Source: a virus (lineage: Duplodnaviria > Heunggongvirae > Uroviricota > Caudoviricetes). From it: a DNA stretch of 64,000 nucleotides. Position 1 is the stretch's first letter. The number at the start of each line of letters is the position of its first letter. The position numbers and the translations under genes were made by a program. The stretch covers positions 26,830-90,829 of the IMG/VR virus record IMGVR_UViG_3300017991_000084; one strand, written 5' to 3'. The notes under the pieces were generated by a model that worked only from the letters and a program-made list of their open reading frames with translations, had not been told where the DNA came from and made no database searches. This document shows, piece after piece, positions 36,365 through 64,000 of the stretch.

Positions 36365-37307
36365 TCACTCTGGATGCGGTTTCATCGGACGGAGCCTCTG
36401 CATCACTGCTACGTCTGCGCCGTGAACCAGAGTCCTCTTCCGCATCCTGAGACCGACGACGACGGCGACCAGTGCCCTCATCCTGAACTGTTTCCTCAGG
36501 CTGATCCCCCTCATCAGAACGACCACGACGACGACGCTCACCACCCTCTGACGAATCACTGCGAGAACGACGACGACGCTCGCCACCCTCATCCGAACCA
36601 CGACGACGTGAAGATGTGCCATTAACCGCCTGGGCCATCTCCTCATACGGGGTCTTCTTCAGCAGCTCCTCGAAATCCTCAGGCGCATCATCCAGCCAGT
36701 CATCCGGAATCGGCTCATTCTCATAGAACCGGAACCCTTTGTACTTCGTTCCCAATCCGGAACCGGAACGGGTGAACTCAATGTCACGTCCCTTGTCCGG
36801 ATCGCTTGGATCAATGATCCCATGACGACGATCCTGAGACAGCTCCGCGATATTGTCATTGACCACCACTGGAGCATCATACCAACGCAGGCCCTTGGCT
36901 TCCGTATCCTTGGTCTTGATGTCCACCACCAAGAACAGATACCGCAGCTTGGGAGCCAAATCTTTCAGCGCCTCATCATCCGCATTCTGCTCCTTCATCT
37001 GCTCGTACAACTCACAGACAGGGCACGGCTCACCAAACATCTTCCGCAAACAGATGAACGTACTCTCATCTGCCCCAATCTTCGTGTGAATGTACACCTT
37101 CTTACCGAAGTAAGGAAGATCTTTGTATGTCTCAAACTTCGGAGAGATGATACGAATCGCATTCGGCCCATTCTCCGTCTTGTACTGCGAAATGCCCAAA
37201 CGATCCAGCTTCGTTGTGTCCACGTAGAAGAACTTGCTCCCTCCACGGTTGTTAGCCTCACGCTGCTCGTTCTCGATTGCCGCTGTACGATCTCTACCTC
37301 TACCCAT
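36324..37307 (-). CDS. gp32-like single-stranded DNA-binding protein with an Arg/Ser/Asp/Glu-rich repetitive C-terminal tail
   Basis: Zn motif H...C...CPVC in HTKIGADESTFICLRKMFGEPCPVCE; acidic tail carrying SDEGGERRRR repeats. Confidence 0.55.
   Translation of the reverse strand: MGRGRDRTAAIENEQREANNRGGSKFFYVDTTKLDRLGISQYKTENGPNAIRIISPKFETYKDLPYFGKKVYIHTKIGADESTFICLRKMFGEPCPVCELYEQMKEQNADDEALKDLAPKLRYLFLVVDIKTKDTEAKGLRWYDAPVVVNDNIAELSQDRRHGIIDPSDPDKGRDIEFTRSGSGLGTKYKGFRFYENEPIPDDWLDDAPEDFEELLKKTPYEEMAQAVNGTSSRRRGSDEGGERRRRSRSDSSEGGERRRRGRSDEGDQPEETVQDEGTGRRRRRSQDAEEDSGSRRRRSSDAEAPSDETASRVNEILDEPSGDEDD
36430..36615. repeat. three imperfect roughly 45-nt tandem repeats (cgacgacgacgctc.ccaccctc...) encoding the RRRR/SD repeats of the SSB tail
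   Basis: Direct repeats visible at 36441-36475, 36520-36566 and 36567-36614. Confidence 0.6.
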
Positions 37308-39454: not shown

Positions 39455-42151
39455 TTACACGATTTCCACTTTTTCTATAGAACCGCATTCCATGCAATCA
39501 TAGAGATGGAACTTCGTGCCACCCTCTTTGACCTTCTCATGCGACTGACCTGTCTTATGACAACACGCCGCACACTCCCGGATAGCCAGCTCGTGCATGT
39601 CATACCAGTTTCGTCCCACTTCCCACTCAAAGATCATTGGCACATCACGCTGCCACTCAAACCATGGACGCACCATGATCTCATCCACCATCGGAACAAT
39701 CTTAATGATCTCAGTAGGAACCGCATCGAATGTGACACTGTCATGCACCTCAATGATCGGCAAGGATCTGATACCTTCCTTGACGAATCTCTTCTCCACC
39801 AAATCCTCTTCGATGTGAATGATTCCATTCAACACCAAATGGAACGCAGGACCCTGGATCGGATAGTTCACCAGCTGATTGTAACTCAAGGGACCATGGC
39901 TCCGGAACCCAGATGCACCCTCCAGGTATCCCTTCGAAACATAGTTCTTCCGGTTACGAATCTGCCACTCACGCACCCCAGCAAACTCATCCCAGAACTG
40001 AGCCTGCACCTTGAATACATGCTCCTTACTCACGCCCAATGGGGCCATGTTCTTGGCGATAGAGTCAGCTGTTGACCCAAAGAACGACGCAAAGACAAAC
40101 AGGTTCTTCGCCCAGAATCGCTCCGTAGGTCTGTCGATCTCAGACTCATCCTTCTCGAATAGCCTAGCCGCCCACTTCAGGTGCATGTCCACACCTTCCT
40201 TAAGCTGACGGATCAGCTCCGGGTCATTAGAAGCCATGGCGATAATGCGAACCTCCAACGATCCCTGGTCACCCTCCAAGAACACCCTTCCTTCAGACGG
40301 GACAATACACTTCCGGAACTTCTTCAGCTCCTCATCATGCTTGAACACATTCTGAACATTCGTATCCGATGCAGAAGATCGATACGTTGCAGCCCGATTC
40401 AAGTTGTAGTTTGGGTGCACATAGTGATCAGAACTCATCACCTTCCGATATTGCTCCACCCTCTCCAGCGCCGAACACGTATGTCGGAAACCAAGCACAC
40501 CATTCACAAACCGCCTGACTGATGCGTTCTTTGTCTTAGCTTCGATGGCTCTCAGATTCTTCTCATCTGTACTGCGTGACTTGAATGGAGGCTCAATCCC
40601 ATACTGATCATAGACCACCTTGGCCACCTGTGCAGGAGAATCCGGATTGAATGTCTCACCCTTCTCCAGCTCCACCGCCTTCACTTTCGCATCCGCATAC
40701 AGTGCCTTCAAGTGTACATCCTGCTCCACCTTGTACTTCCTCTCAAACGCACCCAGCTCCTTCATATCAATTCGCACACCACGAGACTTATAGCTGGCCA
40801 ATGCACGAGCCCCAGGCATCATCAACTTATAGAAGAAGTCCCACAGATCCTGATGTCGCTCAAAGAATCTCTTCTGCTTCTTGTATGCCAGCATTGTGTA
40901 CCGCGAGTCCAATGTACTGTATGTCACCTGATCACTCAACGGCGCATCCAAGAAGTTGACCACATCCAAAATCTCCTTGTAGTCATCGCCTCTCATCTGA
41001 AACGCCTGGAACCCCAAGCTGGTGGACTTGCTGTTGCAGTACATCACATGGGCACCAATCATCGTGTCATGCACCGCATTCACTGCCTTAGTCCCAAAGA
41101 ACTTCCTAGTCCAAGAGTCTTCCATGTTCAAATTCTGCACTACCTTAGGCACATCACTCTTGAGCAGCTGCGTCAGGGACTGACAGATGTAAGACAGCTC
41201 CACCTGATTGAAATACGGATTCCCCTCCTTATCCGGCATGTCCAACGGAATCATTACCCCATAGTCAGGAGCTGTAGCAAACGACACACAGTAAATGGTA
41301 GACCCATCCAAATGCGCGTGAAGAGAATTTGTTTCAAAGTCATACCCGAACGGATTCCCCTGATTGATCAGCTCCTCAATGTACGCAATGGCCTCATCCG
41401 GATCAGTGATAATCTCACACCCTTCTCGATCCAACGGACGTGGGAGCTTCTTCCCTAGCTTCGCCACACACCGTGCCAAATCATACAGGAAGAGATTACG
41501 ATCATCCGGATTGAACTTGTCATTCATTCGTGCCAGATGAAACTTCGGACTGTAAGTGCCGCCCACCCAACACCCATACTCATGGTAAGGCAACACCTGC
41601 CCATGCATCAACTGTGAATTGAACTTGACCTTCTTCAGGTACTTTGGCTGAATGACAGCCTTCAGTGACAACGTATCCAGGCAGATGATAAGCTCTGGTC
41701 TCACCTCTTTGATATCAGCCAACAACCTAGACCGACAAGCCTTCACCTGTGTATCTGTTGGGTCCTTCTCCTGCCACTTGTTCTTCATACCAGGGAAACA
41801 ATCCACCACTGTAGTGCGGACACAATCCCGATCCATATCGATATTCAGCTGCTTCAAGGACGATCTCAGCAGATCCCCATCACTACCCATGAATGTCAAT
41901 CCATCCCGATCATCCACACGACTTGGGGCTCCACTCACAATGAGGATACCCTTCTCACCACGCCCGTAGCGCTCCACCTTCGGAGATCCACAGGACTGGT
42001 ACAGCTTGCATGTAGAGCAGTCATAGACCTTCGCTGCCTTAGGTGTAGACTTACGCGCCCCACGCTTCGCTCTTCTCAGCGCCTTCCCTGTGTCCTTCTT
42101 CAAATCCGGATTGATATCATCTGGAAAAAAGAATGCCTTCTGCTTAGCCAC
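39455..42151 (-). CDS. DNA polymerase I family (PolA) with an N-terminal family-4 uracil-DNA-glycosylase-like domain and a 3'-5' exonuclease
   Basis: UDG-like GEKGILIVSGAPS...LTFMGSDGDLL; exonuclease I motif YDFETN; polymerase motif C IIEVHDSVTFDA; motif B-like RFWAKNLFVFASFFG. Confidence 0.7.
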   Translation of the reverse strand: MAKQKAFFFPDDINPDLKKDTGKALRRAKRGARKSTPKAAKVYDCSTCKLYQSCGSPKVERYGRGEKGILIVSGAPSRVDDRDGLTFMGSDGDLLRSSLKQLNIDMDRDCVRTTVVDCFPGMKNKWQEKDPTDTQVKACRSRLLADIKEVRPELIICLDTLSLKAVIQPKYLKKVKFNSQLMHGQVLPYHEYGCWVGGTYSPKFHLARMNDKFNPDDRNLFLYDLARCVAKLGKKLPRPLDREGCEIITDPDEAIAYIEELINQGNPFGYDFETNSLHAHLDGSTIYCVSFATAPDYGVMIPLDMPDKEGNPYFNQVELSYICQSLTQLLKSDVPKVVQNLNMEDSWTRKFFGTKAVNAVHDTMIGAHVMYCNSKSTSLGFQAFQMRGDDYKEILDVVNFLDAPLSDQVTYSTLDSRYTMLAYKKQKRFFERHQDLWDFFYKLMMPGARALASYKSRGVRIDMKELGAFERKYKVEQDVHLKALYADAKVKAVELEKGETFNPDSPAQVAKVVYDQYGIEPPFKSRSTDEKNLRAIEAKTKNASVRRFVNGVLGFRHTCSALERVEQYRKVMSSDHYVHPNYNLNRAATYRSSASDTNVQNVFKHDEELKKFRKCIVPSEGRVFLEGDQGSLEVRIIAMASNDPELIRQLKEGVDMHLKWAARLFEKDESEIDRPTERFWAKNLFVFASFFGSTADSIAKNMAPLGVSKEHVFKVQAQFWDEFAGVREWQIRNRKNYVSKGYLEGASGFRSHGPLSYNQLVNYPIQGPAFHLVLNGIIHIEEDLVEKRFVKEGIRSLPIIEVHDSVTFDAVPTEIIKIVPMVDEIMVRPWFEWQRDVPMIFEWEVGRNWYDMHELAIRECAACCHKTGQSHEKVKEGGTKFHLYDCMECGSIEKVEIV

Positions 42152-45104: not shown

Positions 45105-46343
45105 CTATTGATCATCCTCTACGTCACCGATGCCCTTCTCACGCTGCTTGTCCTCCTTGAGTAGGAACTCGTCACTCTTGAGCTTCAGACATGACCAGCG
45201 CCCATATTCATCCTCGAACCAGACCACAATCCCCTCTCGGATCGTGTCCGCATCCAACACGGACTTGCCCTCGGTCAGCTGCTTCAAGTCATTCAATGAC
45301 CACGGCTCAGAATCGAATAGATCCACAATCCAATCATTGATGAAATGACCCTCACCCAACAACGGAGGACACTCCAAGCCCAACTCCACGGCACGATGGT
45401 ATACCATCTCACGTGGCAGATCCACGCAGAAGCCGTCTGGTGTGGTGATGGTGACACGATACAAGATCACTCGATACTCACTCGCCTTGCATCCATATGA
45501 GAACCCAGACTGAATCTCAGCCCCAGTCTTTGAATGCCCGAAGATCTCATAGTACACCTGCTCACCCTTCCGCAGATGTGGAGCCAACTTCTCCTCGATC
45601 TCCTTACGCACACCAGGAATGTGAGCACCAATGTGGTCCACACGACGTGTCCCACTAACCACACGCCACTCCTCTGTCACCTTGGGAGCCCAGAACTTCC
45701 ACCACGGACGCTGTGTCTTGAACAGCATGTTACCCGTCCGAGCTGAAGTCCCATGGATCTTCTCCTCAATGTACAGAGTCCCATTTGGAATCCGATGTGA
45801 CTCACGGAGCAGGTGCTTCGTGTCCCAGTGCTTCCAGAACATCTCTGACACCGGCTCCCGAACTCTCTTCTTCCGAGACCCAGGCGCACCAGGAGTACGA
45901 TGAGGCACCACGTACTTCTCACAGATCTTCACACCATTCACATGGGTAAACTCGTCACCTACCTCCAGGTACTCCGCAACCCCAGTGTTGTTGATAGACT
46001 CCACCAGTGTGTGAATAGAGGCAACTGAAGCCACATACCCATTCGACATCTCACCACGGAATCTCTGCGCCCGAACGCGACCATTCTTACCGAAGTAGCC
46101 CTTCACGCTCGTATCCGCATTCAATTCCGGATTCGAATACAAGTTGTTATGGCTCAGGTACTCCGGAGACAACCGTAGATTGCTGTCGAAGTACACCATC
46201 AAGTCACCGTCTTTCGCATCCAGACCGACAACCACCTGATCACCCACCACAGTAGCCAGCTTCAACCGATCTGCATTCGGATGCGGACGGACATTCTCTA
46301 GCCGCACGACCAACGCATTGTTAGATTCCGCTTTCTTCAACAT
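45105..46343 (-). CDS. RNA ligase, Rnl2-type nucleotidyltransferase, with an N-terminal tRNA-binding (Trbp111/EMAPII/Myf-like, PF01588) OB domain
   Basis: N-terminus VVRLENVRPHPNADRLKLATVVGDQ...RAQRFRGEMSNGYV (tRNA_bind signatures); motif I EEKIHGTSAR (T4 Rnl2 has EKIHGTN); motif III-like YYEIFG; motif IV EGIVVWFED; motif V LKLKSDEF. Confidence 0.6.
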   Translation of the reverse strand: MLKKAESNNALVVRLENVRPHPNADRLKLATVVGDQVVVGLDAKDGDLMVYFDSNLRLSPEYLSHNNLYSNPELNADTSVKGYFGKNGRVRAQRFRGEMSNGYVASVASIHTLVESINNTGVAEYLEVGDEFTHVNGVKICEKYVVPHRTPGAPGSRKKRVREPVSEMFWKHWDTKHLLRESHRIPNGTLYIEEKIHGTSARTGNMLFKTQRPWWKFWAPKVTEEWRVVSGTRRVDHIGAHIPGVRKEIEEKLAPHLRKGEQVYYEIFGHSKTGAEIQSGFSYGCKASEYRVILYRVTITTPDGFCVDLPREMVYHRAVELGLECPPLLGEGHFINDWIVDLFDSEPWSLNDLKQLTEGKSVLDADTIREGIVVWFEDEYGRWSCLKLKSDEFLLKEDKQREKGIGDVEDDQ

Positions 46344-48429: not shown

Positions 48430-49797
48430 CTAGTTCTTCGACTTCATCGGCCAAGTCTTGTACGCAAACTGCCCAATGTCCAGATTCTGGGCGAACAAAC
48501 ATCCTACGAACTGAGGACCGTGTCTGTTCGCCATAACATGGGCGCACATACGATTTCCATTGTCTCCCACCTGAGAGATGCCAAGCGCCAAGTCCACATT
48601 GCCGATCTTCCGAATGTCCTCAGCACTGTCTCCCTGCTTCAACTTCGACCTCTTCAATGCATCACGTGTCACCTGGGACGCAATGATCATCAGGAATTTC
48701 TTCTCGTCCGCGAGACCCTTACATTCCAGGTACATATCATTGATCACATCGTTTCTCTTGTCCGATGACGGCAACTTCATTTTTTCTGGATAATCGTTGA
48801 TCACCACATCTGGGATGAAATCCTCATACATCTCCAGGTACTCCAGATACCGACGCAGCTCTCCCATTGTGCAAGTACCCATCGGATATTTTTTGATGAC
48901 CAGCCGCCCACCGAATCGGGCCGCACGCTTACGCACACTCCTCACCGCCTCCAGGTCATGCGTCGTCTTTGGGTAGATCTTCCGGGTCTGCATCACATTC
49001 CCATCGTCATCGATCTCCTCGAAGTCCACGCCATCGACAGAGGCATGCTGATCATTCGATAAGCTACCGAACCCACGGTCATACCGCTCTTCTGTGTCCT
49101 CCAACGACAGCTCGTGTGAAATGTGCAACACGTTCAGCCCACGCATCAACGCCCTGATCCCGAAGTAGATCAGTGAGAACGACTTCTTGCCCTTGAACCC
49201 ACCGAACACACAAACCAGATCCGTTCTACTCATCGGACGCTTCAGGATATTATCCAGTGTGTCCAGCCCCAACGGCAGGATCGGTTCATTCGCCTTGTCT
49301 GGACGCATGTACGCAGGCAGATCAGCCTTGAAGTACTCACTGCCCACCTCTTCCTTCTCTACGCCCACACGCAACGCTGACTGCATGTTCTCACGTGCCA
49401 TGTCCAGCTTGCCCATCTGCGCCAGCTTCATACTCTTGACCACCGCCAGCTCGAACTCACGTGCCTGGACAAACTGATTGATCCGCGACACCACATACGC
49501 GACATTCGGCTCCTCCATGTCATTCATCCGCTCGACGTAGGTCAGGAAGTGGTGCTTCTTATCCTCATCCTTCGTCTCCAGGAACGACACCAGCTCATCA
49601 TGGAAGTGCTGCCCAGGAGCCTCTTTGAATTGCATGAAGTACGAATAGCACAGCTGAATAAGCTCCTTCGTAATTGACGATGAGAAGTATTCCGGCTTGA
49701 TAGCCGAATGTGCCATTTTGATGAAATCAGTGCTGGTGATACACAGGTACAAAAATGAGTCTTGAATCCTCTGACTCAGAACATCATCCTTCTTCAT
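48430..49797 (-). CDS. replicative DNA helicase (DnaB / gp41 family)
   Basis: Walker A GGFKGKKS; DnaB motif IIASQVTR; N-terminal DnaB-like domain. Confidence 0.6.
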   Translation of the reverse strand: MKKDDVLSQRIQDSFLYLCITSTDFIKMAHSAIKPEYFSSSITKELIQLCYSYFMQFKEAPGQHFHDELVSFLETKDEDKKHHFLTYVERMNDMEEPNVAYVVSRINQFVQAREFELAVVKSMKLAQMGKLDMARENMQSALRVGVEKEEVGSEYFKADLPAYMRPDKANEPILPLGLDTLDNILKRPMSRTDLVCVFGGFKGKKSFSLIYFGIRALMRGLNVLHISHELSLEDTEERYDRGFGSLSNDQHASVDGVDFEEIDDDGNVMQTRKIYPKTTHDLEAVRSVRKRAARFGGRLVIKKYPMGTCTMGELRRYLEYLEMYEDFIPDVVINDYPEKMKLPSSDKRNDVINDMYLECKGLADEKKFLMIIASQVTRDALKRSKLKQGDSAEDIRKIGNVDLALGISQVGDNGNRMCAHVMANRHGPQFVGCLFAQNLDIGQFAYKTWPMKSKN

Positions 49798-51208
49798 CCC
49801 TCTTCTCCTAGACGCACAGTATAAAGACTACCGCAGCTGCAAAGATCGCAAAAAATGTGCCAAACCAAATTGCCAACACCTTATTACTCGGCTCGTAGTT
49901 ATCCATTCCGTCTCCTACGCTTTGAAATTGATCACTGGTGGAACGTCCAGGTGTGTCATCCGACAAGCCTGAATCCACCGACGCACCATGGCCTGATGCT
50001 TGGGAGACTGCATGTGCATGTCCCTAGCATGCTGCCCGTAGAACTTGCATCTACAGGCACTGCACGAGCCCACCCACGGCTCCTTCTCCTGCCCCTCGAT
50101 CTGAACATAGTAGGGCTCGATCCAAGCCTTCGGTATGCGTCTCAATTATCTTCTCCCTCATCTTCCATCTTCGTGAATGTGACTCTCTCCGAATAGTAGC
50201 CGTTCGACTCACCATACCATCGGATCGTCACCGCACCCTTCGCTGTAGCCAGATCGTAGAACGTCCACGTGAAGCTCTCACGCCAGTCCTCTTCACGCTC
50301 ATCCTCACCCTCCGGATCTTCGTTAGAACTGACATTCTCACGTGCCGTCAGGATCGGAGATCCAATCAGATCCTCCAGATCACCACAGATGTCCTCGATA
50401 CGAACAGACTCACAACAGTCCTGTATGTGGAACATCAGGAACCGCTCACCGTCCGTCGTATGGAAGGTCAACGACTCCTCATTCTCGTCTCTCACAATAC
50501 TTGTCAGGGTCTTGCCCACTAGCTCGTTGATACTCATGTTGCGTCCCCAATAAAGGAATTCACCAATGCTCATCTCATATACCTCCTACGCTCCACATGC
50601 ATGAATGTTCGCTAGATAGTCTGCATCTGGCTCAAAATCGTGCAGATGCTCACCAGCGCTCCCGTCATCATTCCAACCAGACTGACGATCATCCCGATCA
50701 ACGCTCCATATGTCAGCCAGTCCTGAAACTTCGAACTCTTCTGCTGCCTCCCACCTGCAATCAGACCGATCACAATAGCCACCACGGATAGTCCCATGAG
50801 AACCATGCTCGGCCCAAAGATCGGATCACTCAATGCTTGTCCCATCGTCATCGTCTCACCTCCCGCTGGCGACGGTCCAGGAGATTTGTGTACGCATTCG
50901 CGTGCCACAACAGGACGTCAATCAACTCATCACGGTCCATGTCACCAATGCGTTTTCTATTTAATGCCCACGTGGCATTCAGCAGCTCTTCTTTTTCCAT
51001 CACACCGATCCTCCTCTCAAAAGCCCAACCGGCACAAAACTTGTCGCCACTGCTCCGGAAGCGTAGCAATCTCTCCAGCTCCTGAATAGGAACCCGCCAG
51101 GAATCCGAACCACGTCAGTCATTGGCATTGTCAGTCCTTTCTCTGGCTTGTAGATGATCTTCCGATCACCCATCTTCATCATGAGAAACTCGAACTCTCC
51201 CATTTCCA

Positions 51209-52300
51209 TCACAGCGCTCCTATCACATTTTCTAGATATTGTGGCAACAACACATCCCACGTATATCCGCTGTTCATATTTCCTGGATGAACCATGTCAC
51301 CCTTCTCTCGGTAGTGCTCCTGGAGACAATTCTTCAGGTAGCCGATCAGTTCATCAGCGCTCAAGCCTCTATCGTTGTGGATATCGATGAACGCTACTAC
51401 GCGCTCTGCTGCCTCGATAAACTTCGGGACCTGATAGCGTGCAGGCTTCCATTTCGAATTGTTGATCAGCCACCCATACGCCTCAATGATCTTCTTCGTG
51501 ATTTCTGGATTCTCATCCGGCAACCCACAGGCTCCTGTGGAGCCTCCATTCATCGCATGCTTCAACGAATCGAAGTGCTTCCGGAAGTTCCCACCAGACA
51601 GTATCTGGCCCTGCCAGAACTCGTCCTTCTGGCACCATTTCAAGACCTTCACAGCCTCATCATATGGAACGGCATCTCGCGTAAGTAGCAAATCGAAATC
51701 CTTTGCCCACCTACGTAGTGAATCCTCCTCTTTTTCTGGAGAAAAGAACCGTGCGATCCTACTGTAGAACTTCTTGTTCCTCCGGATGAAGCCCAGTAGA
51801 GCACTCGCTAGAATGTATCCGTCAGTCTCTACCCGGTCCTCTGATTTCGTGGTCGTCGTCCCCTCTTCAACTTTACCTGTTTCTTTTACCTGTTCTTCCT
51901 CTTTATATGGTACGACATCTGTGTCGTACGCCCCTGACACCTGTGTCGTACCCCGGCACGTCATCTGTGTCGTACCCAAGTAGATCTTTCGGTCTCGTTT
52001 TTCGTCCAGTTCTACCCGGATGTGCCCGGATTTGTCCAGTGACTGCACTATGCGTTGGATCTGGCGCTCACTGACTCCAGTCAACTTGGCTAGGTAGCCA
52101 TTTGTTGCCCAACTGTACCCTTCACGCTTCGCCAATCCGGCAATCACTCCGTAGATGCACTTGTGGGACCATTCCAGTTCCGCATCATGCATGACGCTGG
52201 CTGGGATAATGTAGTACAAAGCTCCACTACCGCTCATTCCCATCTCCCTTCGGGCAGTCCTCAGTTGCAGCCAGATCCACATCCATCGTGTCCCAAACAC
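51209..52300 (-). CDS. putative replication initiator / replisome organiser (N-terminal winged HTH) with iterons inside the ORF
   Basis: wHTH-like segment YLAKLTGVSERQIQRIVQSL; acidic Thr-rich linker encoded by the iteron region. Confidence 0.45.
   Translation of the reverse strand: MFGTRWMWIWLQLRTARREMGMSGSGALYYIIPASVMHDAELEWSHKCIYGVIAGLAKREGYSWATNGYLAKLTGVSERQIQRIVQSLDKSGHIRVELDEKRDRKIYLGTTQMTCRGTTQVSGAYDTDVVPYKEEEQVKETGKVEEGTTTTKSEDRVETDGYILASALLGFIRRNKKFYSRIARFFSPEKEEDSLRRWAKDFDLLLTRDAVPYDEAVKVLKWCQKDEFWQGQILSGGNFRKHFDSLKHAMNGGSTGACGLPDENPEITKKIIEAYGWLINNSKWKPARYQVPKFIEAAERVVAFIDIHNDRGLSADELIGYLKNCLQEHYREKGDMVHPGNMNSGYTWDVLLPQYLENVIGAL
51914..51980. repeat. three direct roughly 22-bp iterons (GACAyCTGTGTCGTACsCC), each with a GTACGAC/GTCGTAC palindromic core; candidate origin of replication
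   Basis: CTGTGTCGTAC found at 51919-51929, 51941-51951 and 51965-51975; extra repeats TTACCTGTT x2 at 51881-51900. Confidence 0.55.
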
Positions 52301-54728
52301 GATTGCATTTCGTGCATCGCAGCTTGCTTGAGTCCTTGCATTTCGTCAACTCATGACTCATTCTTCTCCTCCAATGACAAAGGGCTCATCTATCAGGTCC
52401 GAGATAGCCCTGTAATCTTCGTACTTCTCCCCAGTCCAGACCACCAGGATCATAGCGGTCATTCCGTTAGGCCGATCCTCATACTGATAGTCCAGAAGGC
52501 CCTGCTCATGGAGCTTCAGGAACCTAGACCTCATCTCACCTTCGCCGTATTTGTGGATAGACTCCTGGCACCAAGGCTTAAACTTCTGGAAGTAATCGTC
52601 CGCTGTAGCAGCGCAGATCGCCTGTACGTCACGGCCACACTCGCCGTTGATACCTCTTATGAACGCTGTTGGTAGTGGAGGAGCCTTGCCTTCGAACCCG
52701 ATGAACGCGAAGAAGTGAACAATGTCATCGAACTCAAGCATATTCGACTCATCCGTCATTGAATCGTCCCTTTCATGTAGACCGCTGTGTTCACTGGAAA
52801 TGTCATCAGATCGAGATCCTGTGTCTTGGCCTCTTCAGCCGTCAGGAAGTTCAACAGTTCCTCATTCTCACACAGGAACTGCATCGCATCTGTGAAATCC
52901 AGCACCATGAGACGTGGCTCATCCTCGAACCGATAGATGATCAGATGTTGTTCTTCACCCATTTCTCTGCTCCTCTTTCAGTTGCTTCTTGGATACGAAA
53001 CGTCCACTACTCGTGTCACCGTAGACCTTGCATTTAGGGCATTCGTACATGAGTCTGGTAGTGCCACACTCTTTGCACTCTACACCGCAACAGATGCAAT
53101 ATCTAGGCCACCTAGGCACTCTGGTCGAATTCCCTCTCCAGACGCTGGGCGAACACGCTCCGCTCGACACGGTCGAAGTGGTACAACGTGTCAGGGTAAG
53201 CTGCGATATTGCACAGCTCTTCCATGCAGGCGTCTTCCACATCCGTAGGACTCGTGACCTTGATCATAGCATGCTGAAGTGCAACACGCTTTCCGACCAA
53301 ATGGTTGTATTTGTCCACCGGATTCTGCCGAGCCATACCAGCACTGAACAGCTCCCAGATCGGACGGGTCTTTGTCTCGTCCTTCTCACAGGCTTCTTCG
53401 CCCTTGTACAGGTAGACCTTGCAGATGGTTGTGATTGTGGTACGCCCACCACGGCGCGGCTCCACTTCCTTGATGAACTGAACTCGGAATGTCTGACCGT
53501 TCAACTTGACTATCATCTCATTCTCCTTCTACGTAGAGGTTAGACGTCTTGTTCGCCGTCTTCTTTCATTTTTGCCAACACGCGACCAGAAATTTTCTGG
53601 GAGCATTGGCCACACACTTCCAAGCGATGACATAGTGTGCCACGCTTGACCCACCACAGCCTCTTACAGCCTTGACACAGGATCTGAACCGACTTCTTTT
53701 TCTCTTTAATCACTGCCATCACTCGTCTCCCACACCCATCTAGATTCATCATCAGTAGAAACATATGTGCCGCATCTACTACATTTGACTTTCCCAGCCC
53801 CATAACATGAGGACTTGCACCAAAGCCATAGTATGTGGTTGCAATCACAACGATGCCCACACAAATCTCTATTCGGCATCACTCGTCTCCAAAAACAGTC
53901 AATGTAGCCTCGTGCAAGAAGTTCTTCACTTCCAGATCCCACCACGCATTCAGATCTGTGTATGACGGAGGATCGCTCATCGAACGACCACCCATGCAAT
54001 GCTCACACGTGATGGTCACACCATCGTATGAGAAGTAATCATGCCACCGATGACCACGGAGCACGAGAGTCTTTCCGTCTTTCAGCGCCTGAACAGCTTC
54101 TGCATAGGTCAACATACGAGTACGCTCCTAATATTGTTCACGGCAAATTGTAGTGACGACGAAATTCCTGCCATCTCCACCTCCACAAACTCTACCGGAG
54201 GTTCCTGCGTATGATCTGTCTGCCACCCATTCACCTTCACACCCTCATAGATGTGGTTCTCTTCATCCAAGTGAATCGCCAGATACGGATTGTGCTGAGC
54301 CCGGTTGTCAAAGATATTCCTGAGTACCCTTCGCAGGTACTCACGTGTGCAGAAGCAGACCTTGTTCAGGCCCACAAAGTCATCGATGAAGTCACCACCA
54401 GCTTCCTCGATGATCCTCAACCGGCGCTCGTCTGCTATCTGGTACTTCATTTGGATCTCCCACATTCGTCACACTTTTCTTTCGCAGGGAGGACCCATTG
54501 CGGAGTGTTATGCCCCAGCAACACCTCTCTGGTGTACCCATTTTCTGTAAAATGCTTCGTCCGAGCATTCCAGAAGAGCAGGAACGACAGCACGAGAATC
54601 GTCACACACGTGATCACATGCTTCCACAACTTCAAAGCCGCCATTTCTTTATTGTCCATCATCTGTTCTCCTCAGTTAAAGGCTAGGAGCCCGTTTAAGG
54701 CCCCTAGCAGCCTCTGTAATCCACGATC

Positions 54729-55931
54729 TCACCCCTTGAGTACTGCGACGGGCTCTAACTCCACAATCGCCTTCACAAGGTCCTTCTGGTTCTCCATGAC
54801 CACGTCAATAGGCTTGTACGCTCCAGGAGCCTCATCCAGGTCTCCCCGGTTCCGAACTCCATGCACAATGCCCTTCAGCTTGGTGATCTCCTCACCCAAG
54901 TCCAGCTTCTCCTTCGCTGCTGATCGAGACATCAACCGCCCAGCCCCATGGGAGCACGAACAGAAGCTCTCCGGATTCCCCAAACCTTCCACGATGTATG
55001 ACTTCGTCCCCATAGATCCAGGGATGATCCCGATCTCGCCCTTGTAAGCACGAGTCGCACCCTTACGGTGAACCAGGACGTTCTTCCCAAAATGGTGCTC
55101 CATAGCCGCATAGTTGTGGGCTATATTGATCGGTGCATCAAACTCGATGCCCTCGAAGTTCCCACGGAACGTGTCCATGATCGCATACATCATGTACATT
55201 CTGTTCTTCAGAGCAAAATCCACACACCACTTCATTTCACTCAGGTAGTTCTGGCCCTCATCAGAGTCCAGAGGCAAGAATGCCAGCTGCACGTTCGGAG
55301 GCACAGATGCCTTCCACTTCTCATTCAACTGCTTCGCCAGATCGTTGTAGTACTTCGCCACCTTGTAGCCAACGTTCCGAGATCCTGAGTGAAGCATGAT
55401 CCAGATGTGACCATCGTCACCCTTCTGGATCTCGATGAAGTGGTTACCGCCACCCAACGTCCCCAGCTGGAACCGCGCTGCCTCATGCTGCTCAGCCACA
55501 ATAGACTTCGCCGTTCCGCTAGTCAACTTACCCCAAAGCGGAGGCATGTCCAGCATATCTACCTGGAAGCTGTGATGGTTCCGGCCCATCGGGATACGCT
55601 GTCGGATCTCAGCCAGGATAGGTCTCCACAGGTTCTGAGAAAACGATGCACCAAGATTCCAGTCTTTCGCCAAGAGAGAAGTCTTGACCGCACACATGCC
55701 ACAGCCAATGTCCACACCAACGGCATTCGGGATAACCACACCCAAAGTCGCCATGACACCACCAATGGGCATACCGTACCCACAGTGACAATCAGGCATA
55801 GCTGCAATCCACTTGTACGCGAATGGTAGCTGCGCCAGGTTGTACAACTGCAACATAGCCTGAGGCTCAATGTCCTCGGACCACATCTTGATTGGCAACA
55901 TGTTCTTGTGTGCTTCAACTCTCATGGTCAT
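54729..55931 (-). CDS. rtcB: RtcB RNA 3'-phosphate / 2',3'-cyclic phosphate ligase
   Basis: MPDCHCGYG, GGGNHF, AHNY, HGAGR motifs. Confidence 0.8.
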   Translation of the reverse strand: MTMRVEAHKNMLPIKMWSEDIEPQAMLQLYNLAQLPFAYKWIAAMPDCHCGYGMPIGGVMATLGVVIPNAVGVDIGCGMCAVKTSLLAKDWNLGASFSQNLWRPILAEIRQRIPMGRNHHSFQVDMLDMPPLWGKLTSGTAKSIVAEQHEAARFQLGTLGGGNHFIEIQKGDDGHIWIMLHSGSRNVGYKVAKYYNDLAKQLNEKWKASVPPNVQLAFLPLDSDEGQNYLSEMKWCVDFALKNRMYMMYAIMDTFRGNFEGIEFDAPINIAHNYAAMEHHFGKNVLVHRKGATRAYKGEIGIIPGSMGTKSYIVEGLGNPESFCSCSHGAGRLMSRSAAKEKLDLGEEITKLKGIVHGVRNRGDLDEAPGAYKPIDVVMENQKDLVKAIVELEPVAVLKG

Positions 55932-58410: not shown

Positions 58411-59093
58411 TGAAATTCCAGTTTCAATCGCAGAACTCACCGGCCCCCAACCAATATAGGCCAGGAGAATCCCGCACAACACCCCTTCCAGGAACCTTAA
58501 CATTGTCTCACCCTTCTCGACCTCGGAATCGTAGCTCTTGCCACAGCGTTTCAGTGCCGACGATGGCTGCATTGATATGCTCGTGCTTCTTGCCCTTCGC
58601 CGTCGCCTCCTCCGCTGCATCGATAGCCTTGCCCACCACCTTCAGAATGTGACGGGCCTTGTCAAACGGAGACGCCTCTTTCTTCTTGCGTTTAGCCATT
58701 CTTGCCCATCCTCTTTGCTCTCAGTTTCTTCTCCAGCTCCTGGAGAAGCTTGTCACGGTTCCACTGGCCATATCGACACAGCCAATCATGCTCAAGCTTC
58801 TCCAGGAGGGAATTCAGTACGCTACCTCGTTGCCCAGGAGACATTCGCTTCATCAGTCCCATCCTCGACAGCCACAGTAATATCGATCCTTGTCACGGTC
58901 ACCTACCAGCTCGAAGAAGGGCAACTTCTCAGGATCAGACGGAGCCTCTTTCCGGCAGTAGGTGCAGATTGCCATGCGTCCAGACAGATCAGGCACCTCT
59001 TCCATGGGCTCCCAGCAATTGTGAATGCCGCAACCCCACTTATCACCCTTCATGGCATGCGCCGCACAACCACACCTCATGAGCTGCCCGGAT

Positions 59094-59590: not shown

Positions 59591-59663
59591 CGGGACCGGA
59601 AGGATTCGAACCTTCAACTTACGGCTTAGAAGGCCGGTACTCTATCCGTTGAGTTACGATCCC
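59591..59663 (-). tRNA. tRNA-Arg(TCT)
   Basis: Acceptor GGGATCG/CGGTCCC; anticodon loop CTTCTAA; T arm GAAGG-TTCGAAT-CCTTC. Confidence 0.65.
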
Positions 59664-59809
59664 TATTTCAATAGTCCATATCCATCAGGCACCCAAAATG
59701 GACTTGGACCTCTTTGGTCTTGCATGGCTTACCACCAGGAGTCTCACACCCGACCTTGATAGTCTCGTTGGGCTCCTTCCCACCACACAACCAACAGACC
59801 TCTTTCTTC

Positions 59810-60610
59810 TTACTCATAGTCCCGAACCTCCACACCAATTGGAAATCTCGGAATCCCTTCATCAGTCAGTTCCTGGTACTTCACTGTGAGCATCTTGCCA
59901 TAGTAAGACACACGATTCTTCCACGCTTCTCTGCGCCACTCGTAAGTTCCCATCGGACGGGCCTTGAACGTTCTCTCATCCGTAGCCGACACACGGCACA
60001 CCCAGATCGGTGTTCCTATGTCTTTGCCCTTGCCCTCAATCGCACCCACGATCTGATACTCCGCATCATGGAACTTCTTCAGCTTGAGCAAGTCACGACC
60101 ACTGCGCCCATGCTTGTAGATACCATTTGGGTTCCGATAGATCAGGCCCTCGTATCCTTGGTCGATCCACTCATCTAATTGATTCCACACCTCTTCCACC
60201 AAATACAGCTTGGGAGTGACCACCCAATAATCTCTCACCACCTCTCTCACAATTTGTATCCTCTTGTGGAACGGGAGATCCGGAAGGTCCTTCATCCAAC
60301 AGTCATACACGTGGTACTGCAACGTGGCAGAGATCTCATACTTCTTCTTGACCGCTGACACTGTTTCCTGAAATGTGGCATTCGGAAGCATCAACTCACC
60401 ATCCAGCACCAGCCCCCTAGGCCACTGCATTAGAGGATACCGCTCCTGAAGCATGCGTGTTATATGGGGCTTGTGTTCTTTCAGATTTCGTGTCCACGCC
60501 AGTGTCCCATCAAACAAGCACCGCACCCCATCCAGCTTCGGCTGAACATAACAGGGGAACGTAGCCTTCTTGTCTTCGAACTTGTTCGCCAACATCGGCT
60601 TATCCATCAA
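59810..60610 (-). CDS. ATP-dependent DNA ligase (compact, T7-like)
   Basis: Motif I QPKLDGVR; motif III LDGEL; motif IV EGLIYRNP; motif V LLKLKKF. Confidence 0.7.
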   Translation of the reverse strand: MMDKPMLANKFEDKKATFPCYVQPKLDGVRCLFDGTLAWTRNLKEHKPHITRMLQERYPLMQWPRGLVLDGELMLPNATFQETVSAVKKKYEISATLQYHVYDCWMKDLPDLPFHKRIQIVREVVRDYWVVTPKLYLVEEVWNQLDEWIDQGYEGLIYRNPNGIYKHGRSGRDLLKLKKFHDAEYQIVGAIEGKGKDIGTPIWVCRVSATDERTFKARPMGTYEWRREAWKNRVSYYGKMLTVKYQELTDEGIPRFPIGVEVRDYE

Positions 60611-60940
60611 TTGCTCTCCTCAAAAGTGAACTTCGCTCCACACACTCTACACTGACGTGTGTCCGTCCATGTCTCCTGCCCATTTGGATGATAGTGTATC
60701 TCTGTGGAATGAAGGATGGGCAGGTTCCCATCAGGGTCATCCATGTCCTCATACTCATTGTATCCCACACCGCAATCACAATGGAAGTCTGGGAAACTCC
60801 AGTCTCCAGTCTTCGCCATCTCTAGATCAATCTGTGTGCGCACGCTTACGGAGAAAGTAAAGCATGTCACTTCACCCTCATCGATACATCGTTGCAAGAA
60901 CTCAATCCGGTCTTTGTCTGTAATCATCTGCTTCTCCTAA

Positions 60941-61012
60941 CGAGCCTGCCAGAATTCGAATCTGGGCTTGGAGGATCAAAGCCTCCGGTGCTGACCACTA
61001 CACTACAGGCCC
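60941..61012 (-). tRNA. tRNA-Gln(TTG)
   Basis: Anticodon stem GGAGG/CCTCC; loop CTTTGAT; T loop TTCGAAT. Confidence 0.6.
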
Positions 61013-61014
61013 AA

Positions 61015-61086
61015 TAGACCTGCTACGATTCGAACGTAGATCTTGGGAGTCAGAGTCCCAGGTGCTAACCATTACACCACAGGTCT
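61015..61086 (-). tRNA. tRNA-Gln(CTG)
   Basis: Anticodon stem TGGGA/TCCCA; loop CTCTGAC; T arm CTACG-TTCGAAT-CGTAG. Confidence 0.6.
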
Positions 61087-61366
61087 AATTACATGCCCGG
61101 CCAATCACGATACCATGGGCAATCATTATTTGGATTCAACTCACTCGGATGCTTGATCGGAATCTTATCACATTCCGCATACGATCTGGCCAACTCCACA
61201 TTGTTGGAATGGTAACATGCTTTGTCCGATCCAAACTTACACCCGTTACAGTATCTCTTTCCCTTCGGTTGCCAGCCCGTAATAGCCTTTGCCACCCTCA
61301 ACACCACCACAGTGGCCACCAAAACAACTGGGATTATCAGTATATCAGACATAATGCTCCTTTCAA

Positions 61367-61440
61367 AGCCGGTGGAGGGATTCGAACCCACAACCCCTCG
61401 CTTACAAGGCGAGCGCTCTTGTCCATTGAGCTACACCGGC
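61367..61440 (-). tRNA. tRNA-Thr(TGT)
   Basis: Acceptor GCCGGTG/CACCGGC; loop CTTGTAA. Confidence 0.65.
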
Positions 61441-61444
61441 ACAG

Positions 61445-61518
61445 TGGGAGTAGCAGGACTCGAACCTGCGACTTACCGGGTAAAAGCCGGTTGCTCTATC
61501 CAACTGAGCTACACTCCC
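61445..61518 (-). tRNA. tRNA-Lys(TTT)
   Basis: D arm TAGCTCAGTTGGATAGAGC; anticodon stem ACCGG/CCGGT; loop CTTTTAC. Confidence 0.65.
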
Positions 61519-62158
61519 AGGTGCTCACCATTACACCACAACTGATCATCCATAGCCTGATCAATCGCCGTTCGCACATCATTCACCGCACCTTCCATAC
61601 TCGTCTCATGAAGCCGAAAACCTCGGCCCGTCGTAGACCCACGGAGGATGCACTTTCCAGTATACTTTTTCTTCTCCAGCTGCTTTTGCAGCCAATCTAA
61701 TCGTTGTTTGTCTGTGAACATGTCACTCCTCACGCAAACATTGCCAGCCCTTCACCATAATCATCGGTGTGAACGCCACACCGAATCAAATCCTTCACTT
61801 GATCCTCAGTGATCAATGGGGCCAAATCTTCCAGAGACACATCCAAGAAGATCTGATCGTGCTCAGCCGCACTCACCATGTCCGTTGTTCCCTCTCCACC
61901 CAAGATATCATGCAGCATCAAGAACGCACAGATATCCGGTCTCGGATGACGAGGATTCTCGATATCCTCGAACTTGAGGTATATACTGTCATCAGCATCA
62001 AACAGTTCGCACATTTCTTCCACGGTCATGTCATTCCTCCTCAATAGGACGACGGCAACGTTTTTTGTTCTCCTCCTTCTTCCGATCCTTATGGACTCGT
62101 GAAGGTGGAGGCATCTTGCCTCTTGGCAATCTCGGTTTTCTCTTTGGCTTCTTCATAA

Positions 62159-62229
62159 GGTGTTCGACGGGATTCGAACCCGCCCCCTCAGCGTCACAGG
62201 CTAATATGCTACCACTACACCACGAACAC
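62159..62229 (-). tRNA. tRNA with anticodon GTG (His-like), no encoded G-1, shifted D stem
   Basis: Acceptor GTGTTCG/CGAACAC with C73; anticodon stem TTAGC/GCTGA; loop CTGTGAC; T arm GCGGG-TTCGAAT-CCCGT. Confidence 0.45.
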
Positions 62230-62231
62230 AA

Positions 62232-62305
62232 CTCCCCCGGAAGGACTCGAACCTTCGCATACTCGGATTAACAGTCCGAAGCTCTACCAACTGAGCTACA
62301 GGGGA
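62232..62305 (-). tRNA. tRNA-Asn(GTT)
   Basis: D arm TAGCTCAGTTGGTAGAGC; anticodon stem TCGGA/TCCGA; loop CTGTTAA. Confidence 0.65.
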
Positions 62306-62309
62306 CTCA

Positions 62310-62382
62310 AGACCAAGGTGGGATTCGAACCCACATAAGCCGGGTTGCAACCGGCTACCTAAGGCCATTCGGACACTTGGTC
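62310..62382 (-). tRNA. tRNA-Cys(GCA)
   Basis: Acceptor GACCAAG/CTTGGTC with U73; anticodon stem GCCGG/CCGGC; loop TTGCAAC; weak D stem. Confidence 0.5.
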
Positions 62383-62590
62383 ATCGCTTACTAGTCCACT
62401 CTTGGAAGACTGCTTCAATTTGATCCCTTGTCATTGCATGTCCATACTCAAGGACCAACAACTCCACAGCTCCAGGAAACATCACATCCACACTGTGGAC
62501 GTCACCAAAGTCAACTTCATTTGAACCGTACCAGTAATCTAAATCACTTTCCATTGCCCTTTGAAGCTCACTCATATCAATCTCCCCTCA

Positions 62591-62664
62591 TTGCACCGGA
62601 GTGGATTCGAACCACCACTGAACCGGGCTTAAACCGGATGCCTCTGCCGTTGGGCTACCGGCGC
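62591..62664 (-). tRNA. type-I (short variable arm) tRNA with anticodon TAA (a Leu UUA/UUG anticodon), A73
   Basis: Acceptor GCGCCGG/CCGGTGC; D arm TAGCCCAACGGCAGAGGC; anticodon stem CCGG/CCGG; loop TTTAAGC; variable TCAGT; T arm GGTGG-TTCGAAT-CCACT. Confidence 0.45.
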
Positions 62665-62746
62665 TTAATCAGATCACCAAAAAACCAACCAAAAAGAAAG
62701 CAACAACACAAAGCTATAATCTGCCCCATATCAATTCTCCTTTCAA

Positions 62747-62833
62747 TGCCAGCTGAGGGTATCGAACCCACTCGGCCTCTTTACGAGGATCAGGGTTACA
62801 GCCTGAGCCGCCTCCTTAGCAGTCTACGCTGGC
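62747..62833 (-). tRNA. tRNA-Tyr(GTA), type II
   Basis: Anticodon stem TCAGG/CCTGA; loop CTGTAAC; long variable arm TCCTCGTAAAGAGGCCGA; T loop TTCGATA; one acceptor mismatch. Confidence 0.5.
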
Positions 62834-62996
62834 GTTTGCTTCTGGACTTGGCTTGCCACACCTTAGAGTACTCTCCAGTGTGACCTGCTATGTGCTCTGT
62901 CCTAGGGCTTCACTACCGCTACCCATTCGCAACCGTAAGCTCGTCAGCTTTCGTGGACTGCCAGAATTCACCACTTCAAACGGTTTCCAGAAGCAA

Positions 62997-63070
62997 TGAC
63001 CCCAGTGGGAGTCGAACCCACACTAGACTGGTTCTAAGCCAGCCGCCTCTGCCAATTGGGCTACAGGGCC
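62997..63070 (-). tRNA. type-I tRNA with anticodon TAG (a Leu CUA anticodon), A73; paralog of the tRNA at 62591-62664
   Basis: D arm TAGCCCAATTGGCAGAGGC; anticodon stem GCTGG/CCAGT; loop CTTAGAA; variable CTAG; T arm GTGGG-TTCGACT-CCCAC. Confidence 0.45.
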
Positions 63071-63075
63071 TTCAA

Positions 63076-63148
63076 TGGGAATGGGAGGACTCGAACCTCC
63101 GACGCTTGGTACTTCACACCAACGCTCTTCCAACTGAGCTACATTCCC
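63076..63148 (-). tRNA. tRNA-Phe(GAA)
   Basis: Acceptor GGGAATG/CATTCCC; anticodon stem TTGGT/ACCAA; loop GTGAAGT; T arm GGAGG-TTCGAGT-CCTCC. Confidence 0.65.
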
Positions 63149-63153
63149 CTAAT

Positions 63154-63226
63154 GGACCGCGATGGGACTCGAACCCACAACCCCCTGCGTGCAAAGCAGG
63201 TGCTCTCCCAATTGAGCTACGCGCCC
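63154..63226 (-). tRNA. tRNA-Ala(TGC)
   Basis: Anticodon stem CCTGC/GCAGG; loop TTTGCAC; G2-U71 wobble and a 3-70 mismatch in the acceptor. Confidence 0.55.
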
Positions 63227-63308
63227 ATATGTGACTAAGCTGTCTGGGGTTCATCCTTTCGGGTAGCATACCAGACGATTCTCATCCCTTTACGGTGCTC
63301 AATCACAA

Positions 63309-63381
63309 CAGGACTAGCAGGACTCGAACCCACAACGCGCGGTTCGTAGCCGCGCATGATATCCATTTTCACCATAGTCCT
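63309..63381 (-). tRNA. tRNA-Arg(ACG)
   Basis: Anticodon stem CGCGG/CCGCG; loop CTACGAA; T arm GTGGG-TTCGAGT-CCTGC; A1-U72. Confidence 0.55.
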
Positions 63382-63387
63382 ATTCAA

Positions 63388-63461
63388 TCACCGACCTTGG
63401 ACTCGAACCAAGAACCACCTGTGTGTAAGACAGGCACTCTACGCAATTGAGCTAGTCGGCG
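63388..63461 (-). tRNA. tRNA-Val(TAC)
   Basis: Anticodon stem CCTGT/ACAGG; loop CTTACAC; T arm CTTGG-TTCGAGT-CCAAG. Confidence 0.65.
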
Positions 63462-63464
63462 TAA

Positions 63465-63538
63465 TCACGCTGGGGAGACTCGAACTCCCAACCTTCGGAT
63501 CGACAATCCGGTGCTCTAACCAGTTGAGCTACAGCGCG
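63465..63538 (-). tRNA. tRNA-Asp(GTC)
   Basis: D arm TAGCTCAACTGGTTAGAGC; loop TTGTCGA; T arm GGGAG-TTCGAGT-CTCCC. Confidence 0.6.
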
Positions 63539-63765
63539 TCACTACATAGACAGTGACTCCCACCTAGTCTACACACTTACACTCATCGAGCCCCATCGAC
63601 GCCGATGGCTGCATGCATGGCTCTCCTGCAAGGGGTGGTTTTTCAGTGACGTCACCTGATCATCTCAGTCGCGTTGCGTCGCGCTGGAGGTTTGGCCCTT
63701 ACGTAAGCAGGCGACCTCCCCTGAGATTCTCAGACTCTTACTGCCTATGCTTATTCACTTTTCAT

Positions 63766-63837
63766 TAGCCCAGGAGAGGATCGAACTCTCGGCTGATGGC
63801 TGAGAACCATCAATGTTAGCCACTACACCACTGGGCC
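63766..63837 (-). tRNA. tRNA-Glu(CTC)
   Basis: Acceptor GGCCCAG/CTGGGCT; anticodon stem GATGG/CCATC; loop TTCTCAG; T arm GAGAG-TTCGATC-CTCTC. Confidence 0.6.
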
Positions 63838-63842
63838 GCTAA

Positions 63843-63925
63843 TGGCTTAGGAGGGAATCGAACCCTCACGCCCGAAGGCACTGGTGTTTGAAACCAGCGT
63901 GTCTGCCTAATTCCACCACCAAGCC
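63843..63925 (-). tRNA. tRNA-Leu(CAA), type II
   Basis: Acceptor GGCTTGG/CTAAGCC with A73; anticodon stem CTGGT/ACCAG; loop TTCAAAC; long variable arm TGCCTTCGGGCGT. Confidence 0.65.
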
Positions 63926-63928
63926 GAA

Positions 63929-64000
63929 TAGCCCAGGAGAGGATCGAACTCTCGTCTCAGGATCGAAAGTCCTGAATGATAACCACTACACCACTGGGCC
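63929..64000 (-). tRNA. tRNA-Arg(TCG); shares acceptor and T arms with the tRNA-Glu at 63766-63837
   Basis: Anticodon stem CAGGA/TCCTG; loop CTTTCGA; same acceptor (GGCCCAG) and T arm as the Glu tRNA; ends at the window edge. Confidence 0.55.

Follow-up and report, generated by a model that had tools for sequence, protein, structure and literature searches.

The DNA analyzed here is a stretch of 64,000 nt from a virus of the Caudoviricetes (positions 26,830 to 90,829 of the IMG/VR record IMGVR_UViG_3300017991_000084). We refer to the whole stretch as the window and count all positions from its first nucleotide. An array of three direct repeats (iterons), followed by an A/T-rich stretch, lies inside a gene on the (-) strand of the window that encodes a predicted replication initiator. 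Because this layout is like that of lambda, we consider it very probable that the array represents a replication origin, namely an initiator-dependent origin of the lambda/SPP1 type that is embedded in the gene of its own initiator.

The repeat array, the adjoining tract and the encoded protein

The core of the array is an exact 11-mer, CTGTGTCGTAC, which is present at 51919-51929, 51941-51951, and 51965-51975. A preliminary description of the window had reported three direct repeats of about 22 bp at 51919, 51941, and 51965, and these positions were borne out by the exact copies. A repeat finder extended the units to 51909-51929, 51931-51951, and 51955-51975 (about 22 bp each, spacing 22 and 24), and the consensus GTACGACACAG[A/G]TG is present in all three. 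By Tandem Repeats Finder (TRF), the array was the top tandem array of the window, with a period of 22, 2.9 copies, and a score of 79. The 11-mer did not occur anywhere else in the window, even when one mismatch was allowed. Three copies of an 11-mer within 100 nt were found in 0 of 200 dinucleotide-preserving shuffles of the window, and the real window contained exactly one such case, which was the iteron array.

The earlier reading that each copy forms a GTACGAC/GTCGTAC palindrome was fully true for one unit, 51909-51930. Its consensus form is GGTACGACA-N4-TGTCGTACC, and its stem of 8 bp gave a DNA hairpin with z = -4.8 (-7.8 kcal/mol). In the other two units the left arms are degenerate (z = -1.5 and -1.1). 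The first base of iteron 3 (position 51930, nt 308 of the gene) is the only nucleotide that differs between the initiator gene of the window and the copies on contigs L013 and L014 from two other samples. Both of these contigs carry the base that makes the dyad of iteron 3 perfect, and the change is non-synonymous (A103G).

The part of the initiator that is encoded by the iterons comprises residues 88-110. Copies 1 and 2 translate as G-T-T-Q, and copy 3, which is shifted by one base, translates as Y-D-T-D. Since the frame of copy 3 differs from that of the other two, it is the DNA sequence that is conserved here, not the peptide.

Directly 3' of the third iteron in the coding direction lies the tract 51860-51908, ATATAAAGAGGAAGAACAGGTAAAAGAAACAGGTAAAGTTGAAGAGGGG, a candidate DNA unwinding element that encodes residues 110-126. 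Its A+T content is 63%, compared to 49% for the initiator gene. Of all 40-nt windows of the gene, both the one richest in A/T (68%) and the one richest in purine (82%) fall in the tract after the last iteron, and in most of the related genes described below the corresponding windows also directly follow the last repeat. The tract opens with CATATAAAG, a motif that precedes the conserved DGY codons by 84-96 nt in all relatives. A variant of CATATAAAGGA follows the last repeat in every gene at this distance. The motif is read in one frame in the window and in a different one in the other genes, which is a weak hint at conservation on the DNA level.

Two minor repeats had also been assigned to this region. 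The word TTTACCTGTT is indeed present twice, with a spacing of 13, inside the A/T-rich tract. It is a mere two-copy 10-mer, it was not conserved in the relatives, and its significance is uncertain. Of the proposed GTCGTCGTCCCCT-like copies, one exact copy exists at the far side of the tract. Similar words occurred at chance level, since 19 were counted in the window and 17.8 were expected, and we rejected them as a real repeat family. The sole local look-alike, 51923-51935, comprises the end of iteron 3 and the spacer and has three mismatches. The exact copy may represent a degenerate half-iteron, which has no statistical support.

The start and length of the initiator gene (Table 1) agree with the gene calls on contigs L013 and L014, which are near-identical to the window. 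The protein differs by one residue from the database protein P0001. A protein that is identical but for one residue sits on a contig of 139 kb, and the genome comprises at least 139 kb. An open reading frame (ORF) for 44 aa with weak zinc-ribbon similarity (52227-52361) overlaps the start of the initiator gene by 11 nt, and it is a called gene in the near-identical contigs.

The Pfam family HTH_36 matched residues 21-74 (E 2.5e-9), and a scan at E values up to 0.1 otherwise gave only weaker matches to generic helix-turn-helix (HTH) families. AlphaFold modeling with nine family members (mean pLDDT 58) predicted a winged helix of three helices and a beta hairpin for residues 13-87 (pLDDT 70-86). 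Residues 90-137 were predicted to be disordered (pLDDT 24-39), and the remainder was all-helical with a pLDDT of about 60. The repeats are therefore located immediately behind the winged helix, within the disordered linker or at its beginning. This confirms their placement within the linker of an initiator-like ORF with a winged HTH, as the preliminary description had it. When the model was compared to known structures by Foldseek, only generic winged-helix matches were obtained (E ≥0.02), with RepA_N plasmid initiators weakly among them. Searches of NCBIfam and of PDB sequences with the initiator gave no useful match.

Matches to PHROG families (E 1e-12 to 1e-16) were annotated as "DnaD-like helicase loader", "replication initiation O-like", "replication initiation protein", or "replisome organizer", and were divided between the N-terminal part and residues 150-240 approximately. 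Among them were PHROG 391 ("O-like", E 4e-15), PHROG 4880 ("replisome organizer", E 4.5e-12, residues 152-231), and PHROG 2514 ("DnaD-like helicase loader", E 1.8e-16). The last was not accompanied by a match to Pfam DnaB_2 or to a PDB sequence. By BLASTP, residues 161-235 aligned to residues 204-278 of lambda O (NC_001416) with an E value of 2e-8 and 24% identity over 75 aa, and the motif W..QD.FW.G..LS is common to both proteins. We concluded from this match that the middle domain is homologous to the C-terminal domain of lambda O. At E ≤1e-3, the wider superfamily, which combines HTH_36 with the O-like domain, has 17,932 clusters, and many of its members are shorter and lack the last domain.

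Table 1. Positions of the iterons, of the neighboring tract and minor repeats, and of the initiator and helicase region in the window.
Feature	Position	Strand	Remarks
Iteron 1 (gene order)	51955..51976	(-)	GGTACGACACAGATGACGTGCC; gene nt 262-283; frame 0
Iteron 2	51931..51952	(-)	GGTACGACACAGGTGTCAGGGG; gene nt 286-307; frame 0; right arm degenerate
Iteron 3	51909..51930	(-)	CGTACGACACAGATGTCGTACC; gene nt 308-329; other frame; near-perfect dyad symmetry
Candidate DNA unwinding element	51860..51908	(-)	49 nt; 63% A+T; 84% purine (coding strand)
TTTACCTGTT (two copies)	51872-51881, 51885-51894	(+)	10-mer; spacing 13; inside the A/T-rich tract
GTCGTCGTCCCCT	51852..51864	(+)	possible degenerate half-iteron
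Replication initiator gene	51209..52237	(-)	342 aa; ATG start at 52237
Predicted N-terminal winged-helix DNA-binding domain	51977..52201	(-)	residues ~13-87; Pfam HTH_36 and AlphaFold model
Helical middle domain	51533..51823	(-)	residues ~139-235; homology to C-terminal domain of lambda O; PHROG 391/4880/2514
Extra conserved C-terminal helical domain	51212..51520	(-)	residues ~240-342; absent from lambda O
DUF7448 gene	50142..50573	(-)	PHROG 2650; between initiator and helicase genes in L005, L006, L007, and L013
DnaB-like replicative helicase gene	48430..49797	(-)	PHROG 19, E 5.8e-47; weak DnaB_C match

Repeats and DNA-binding domains in related genes

A protein search identified nine relatives of the initiator with 49-74% identity, all of them metagenomic, and we fetched the corresponding DNA. 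L002, a further locus on a viral contig that was found alongside L001, was added to the comparison. In the alignment, a variable N-terminal domain and linker are joined to a strongly conserved C-terminal part of 200 aa. The N-terminal domains form four groups: the window with L005 and L002; L006 alone; L008 with L011; and L009 with L001, L010, and L012. Identity of the N-terminal domains is 59-85% within these groups and 19-42% between them. Across all genes, the two C-terminal segments show 57-89% identity, with 64-87% for the middle domain among the relatives. The grouping of the C-terminal parts is a different one, as seen for L002, whose N-terminal part is like that of the window while its C-terminal part resembles those of P0008 and P0009. 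This discordance indicates recombination near the linker. Genes of the T5orf172/MUG113 type (GIY-YIG-like nucleases) are located directly upstream of the initiator gene, by the mosaic junction, in L011 (1456-2142) and L012 (224-577).

Other searches did not extend the family. A word-indexed search with the C-terminal 204 aa returned only three relatives that were already known, scans of genome and metagenome contigs gave none that was new, and all that a second scan of viral contigs added was P0009 in a frameshifted variant. A set of 185,579 species, each represented by one genome, contained no relative of the initiator.

Local repeats, direct or inverted and 9 nt or longer, were concentrated just before the conserved part in every gene. 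Within the 190 nt that precede the conserved DGY codons, their coverage was 24-44% in 9 of the 10 genes, compared to 1-5% elsewhere in the gene. The repeat sequences are of four types, and these match the four groups of N-terminal domains. L005, the relative with 74% identity, has two copies of GTACGACCTGTATG and a third copy, GCACGACCTGGATG. Compared to the window its half-site is kept, and in place of the central ACAG the first two copies have CTGT and the third has CTGG. In L006, the unit TGGAA[G/C][C/T]ACAGTTCCGGGC is present three times with a spacing of 23 and in all three frames. L008 and L011 have 3-4 units of the G[A/G]CCCCAAC type with a spacing of 22-23 (one gap of 33). The units of L009, L001, L010, and L012 are built around CTTAGGCTATAG / TTTACCTATAG and occur in both orientations. 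In most repeat units, the two arms of a short dyad are separated by about 4 nt. The peptides encoded by the repeat region are not conserved among the relatives, while the repetition is.

Similarity to known origins and alternative explanations

The lambda origin, consisting of iterons and an A/T-rich tract in the middle of gene O, is experimentally established (PMC7466680), and so is oriL of SPP1, in which AB boxes and an A/T-rich unwinding element lie within gene 38 (PMC5737612). As a positive control we ran lambda gene O through the identical scripts. The four annotated iterons were found at 39-46% of the gene with a spacing of 20, 24, and 23 and in three frames. They were followed by a tract of 45 nt with 76% A+T and 69% purine, and the repeat density showed a single peak in mid-gene. 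This is the same picture as in the window, where every layout feature that can be assessed by computation was present. The comparison to lambda ori inside gene O, already drawn in the preliminary description, was therefore supported.

In detail, the window shares with lambda (and with other lambdoid phages, including Stx phages) dyad iterons that are spaced by 20-24 bp and located between a DNA-binding N-terminal domain and the C-terminal domain. Also shared are copies in different frames, an A/T- and purine-rich tract directly 3' in the coding direction, and the homology of the C-terminal domain of O to the middle domain of the initiator. The N-terminal domain of lambda O belongs to Phage_rep_O, whereas that of the window initiator belongs to HTH_36 and gave no significant BLASTP alignment to it. 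Lambda-type origins have four to six iterons compared to three in the window, and the A+T content of the lambda tract is higher. Unlike lambda, the phage has an additional conserved C-terminal domain of about 100 aa in its initiator, no P-like loader gene that we could see, and its own DnaB-like helicase and PolA, in a genome of at least 139 kb with at least 21 tRNA genes.

The SPP1 system consists of the replisome organizer G38P, the loader G39P, and the helicase G40P. Features in common with the window are repeats and an A/T-rich unwinding element inside the initiator gene, an initiator without an AAA+ domain, and a replicative helicase encoded by the phage (PMC5737612; PMC3485210). By analogy, theta initiation that is followed by recombination-driven replication, as described for SPP1 in the same sources, may be common to both. 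The initiator did not match the G38P family in Pfam, and its similarity to a "replisome organizer" is confined to the PHROG level. SPP1 also has oriR, whereas no second copy of the repeats was present in the 64 kb examined.

In many RepA_N systems, the origin is located within repA. In initiators of the RepA_N type and in PLE RepA, a winged-helix N-terminal domain binds semi-palindromic direct repeats, and the C-terminal domain is specific for the host or a partner (PMC7145576). The best Foldseek matches of the window initiator include 4pql, 4pt7, and 5kbj from this group, which comprises initiators of the Firmicutes plasmids pSK41 and pTZ2162 as well as PLE RepA. The structural similarity was weak (E 0.1-0.3, TM 0.2/0.5, from a model of low confidence), Pfam RepA_N (PF06970) was not matched, and the context of RepA_N is a plasmid and not a phage.

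By analogy to lambda and SPP1, initiation at the array could proceed as follows. Dimers of the winged-helix domain would bind the three dyad-symmetric units of about 22 bp, each with the half-site GGTACGACA and a 4-nt spacer. As the units are 22-24 bp apart, which is about two helical turns, a nucleoprotein complex similar to the "O-some" of lambda could be formed. This complex, together with negative supercoiling and transcription through the gene, would then melt the adjoining purine-skewed tract. The lambda-O-like helical domain, possibly together with the extra C-terminal domain, would recruit the DnaB-like helicase of the phage either directly or through a loader, and the polymerase module of the phage would take over. 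Repeats within a disordered linker may be tolerated whatever peptide they encode.

Several observations weigh against an origin at this site. There are only three iterons, two of them with degenerate dyads, and the relative L002 has imperfect repeats only. The A+T content of the tract is only moderate (63% over its 49 nt), and its best 60-nt window is within the top 0.3% of the window without being the richest. Pfam annotations, precomputed for all neighboring genes, revealed no loader similar to lambda P or DnaC. The GC skew was uniformly between -0.16 and -0.36 over the 64 kb, with no inflection or switch. Since the phage encodes a UvsX-like recombinase, bulk or later replication may depend on recombination. 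In addition, 64 kb of a genome of at least 139 kb were examined, so that other or additional origins are possible.

The preliminary description had named the cumulative GC skew as a check for an origin. We followed the skew, including the cumulative skew, through the window, and it was uninformative in this respect because it follows the single direction of transcription: the large annotated genes and all 21 tRNA genes are on the (-) strand. The number of DnaA boxes in the window corresponded to chance with no cluster near the array, and a scan for promoters and terminators between 50500 and 53500 gave nothing above chance.

The strongest alternative, which we regard as unlikely, is that the repeats are binding sites through which the initiator exerts regulation, and that the origin is located elsewhere. 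Such sites could act in autorepression by a roadblock, in copy control by handcuffing, or in fork arrest as at oriR of SPP1. The part of the genome covered and the lack of a skew inflection at the array are compatible with this explanation, and G38P of SPP1 also binds a second site that does not initiate (PMC3485210). However, we found no further iteron copies, such as an oriR-like second site, in the window even with three mismatches. Other repeats that might represent competing origins in the window were confined to tRNA genes, a duplication of 42 nt within coding sequence (36513-36596), and weak matches in two copies. The A/T-rich and purine-skewed tract, the position of which is conserved in all relatives, fits an unwinding element better than a mere operator, and the layout equals that of lambda ori.

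It is very improbable that the repeats serve as a structure in the initiator mRNA, with effects on ribosome pausing, translational coupling, or RNA stability. The (-) strand RNA of 51845-51995 did fold better than shuffled sequences (-38.7 kcal/mol, z = -3.46), but this value follows automatically from dyad repeats. A hairpin does not need tandem direct repetition at 22-24 nt, and the relatives keep repetition and dyads with unrelated sequences and other pairing possibilities.

We give hardly any credit to the view that the repeats mark a hot spot of recombination or homing at the boundary of exchangeable gene modules instead of an origin. The differing N- and C-terminal phylogenies with a junction near the linker, as well as the nuclease-like genes upstream of the initiator in L011 and L012, would be in line with it. 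Mosaicism at the junction is equally expected, however, if a cassette for origin specificity is exchanged, and a hot spot and an origin cassette are compatible with each other. No nuclease gene adjoins the initiator gene in the window, and tandem dyad repeats matched to a DNA-binding domain are not known as a feature of homing sites.

That the array is just a repetitive, low-complexity peptide linker, which arose by duplication of the G-T-T-Q unit and has no function as DNA, would suit the common frame of copies 1 and 2 and the predicted disorder of the segment, but it is equally hard to believe and was largely refuted by the reading frames (copy 3 in another frame, three copies in three frames in L006, four iterons in three frames in lambda) and by the conservation of repetition instead of peptide sequence among the relatives.

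An origin embedded in the initiator gene thus remains our preferred explanation. It is conceivable, if doubtful, that in this lineage of large phages with many tRNA genes winged helix and iterons together form a swappable cassette for origin specificity, with at least four specificities among the ten genes, which is recombined onto a constant recruitment module, and that the extra C-terminal domain of this module (residues 240-342 approximately), perhaps together with the DUF7448 protein, takes the place of a loader of the lambda P, DnaC, or G39P type.

Genomic context and significance

The initiator gene is part of a replication module that is encoded entirely on the (-) strand. Upstream of it are the genes for a DNA ligase and for RtcB. 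Downstream follow, in this order, three small ORFs, DUF7448, the DnaB-like helicase, a SNF2-type helicase, an RNA ligase, and a methyltransferase. Further downstream are genes for a protein similar to processivity factors, PolA with an N-terminal domain similar to UDG, an SSB-like protein, the UvsX-like recombinase, and an SbcC-like exonuclease. Presumably, the DnaB-like helicase, whose gene lies 1.4 kb downstream of that of the initiator, is the cargo that is brought to the origin. The DUF7448 protein is a candidate for a helicase loader or partner; a G39P-like loader was not recognized among the neighbors either.

PolA is a family-A DNA polymerase of 898 aa (39455-42151) with the UDG-like domain at its N-terminus. 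Its identity to the polymerases of cultured phages does not exceed 23-25%, and we therefore assign the phage to a deeply divergent lineage. The SSB-like gene (36324-37307) contains the 42-nt tandem duplication mentioned above, the copies of which are 79% identical and ACG/GAC-rich and probably encode a repeated peptide segment. The only long inverted repeat of the window is a perfect repeat of 16 nt, CTCCTGGAGAAGCTTG / CAAGCTTCTCCAGGAG, with a spacer of 40 nt (58737-58808).

The 21 tRNA genes, all on the (-) strand, are located at 1783-2668 and 59591-64000. Nineteen of them form a dense cluster at the right end, and at least 16 amino acids are represented. The gene for the RNA ligase RtcB (54729-55931) and a second gene of an RNA ligase family (45105-46343, PHROG 968) are in the same module as the tRNA cluster. 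Together they look like a set for tRNA repair as phages use it against anticodon nucleases.

The origin proposed here is an element of a familiar kind, an origin embedded in the gene of its initiator, and it does not change the understanding of how such origins work. It does provide a precise and testable candidate origin, with its cognate initiator domain, for a lineage of large phages that has no cultured relative. In the ten related genes, nature provides a series of initiators and iterons with matched specificities, combined with a recruitment domain that is nearly constant. Such a series is of use for studies on the evolution and exchange of origin specificity, and for the construction of orthogonal replicons derived from phages.

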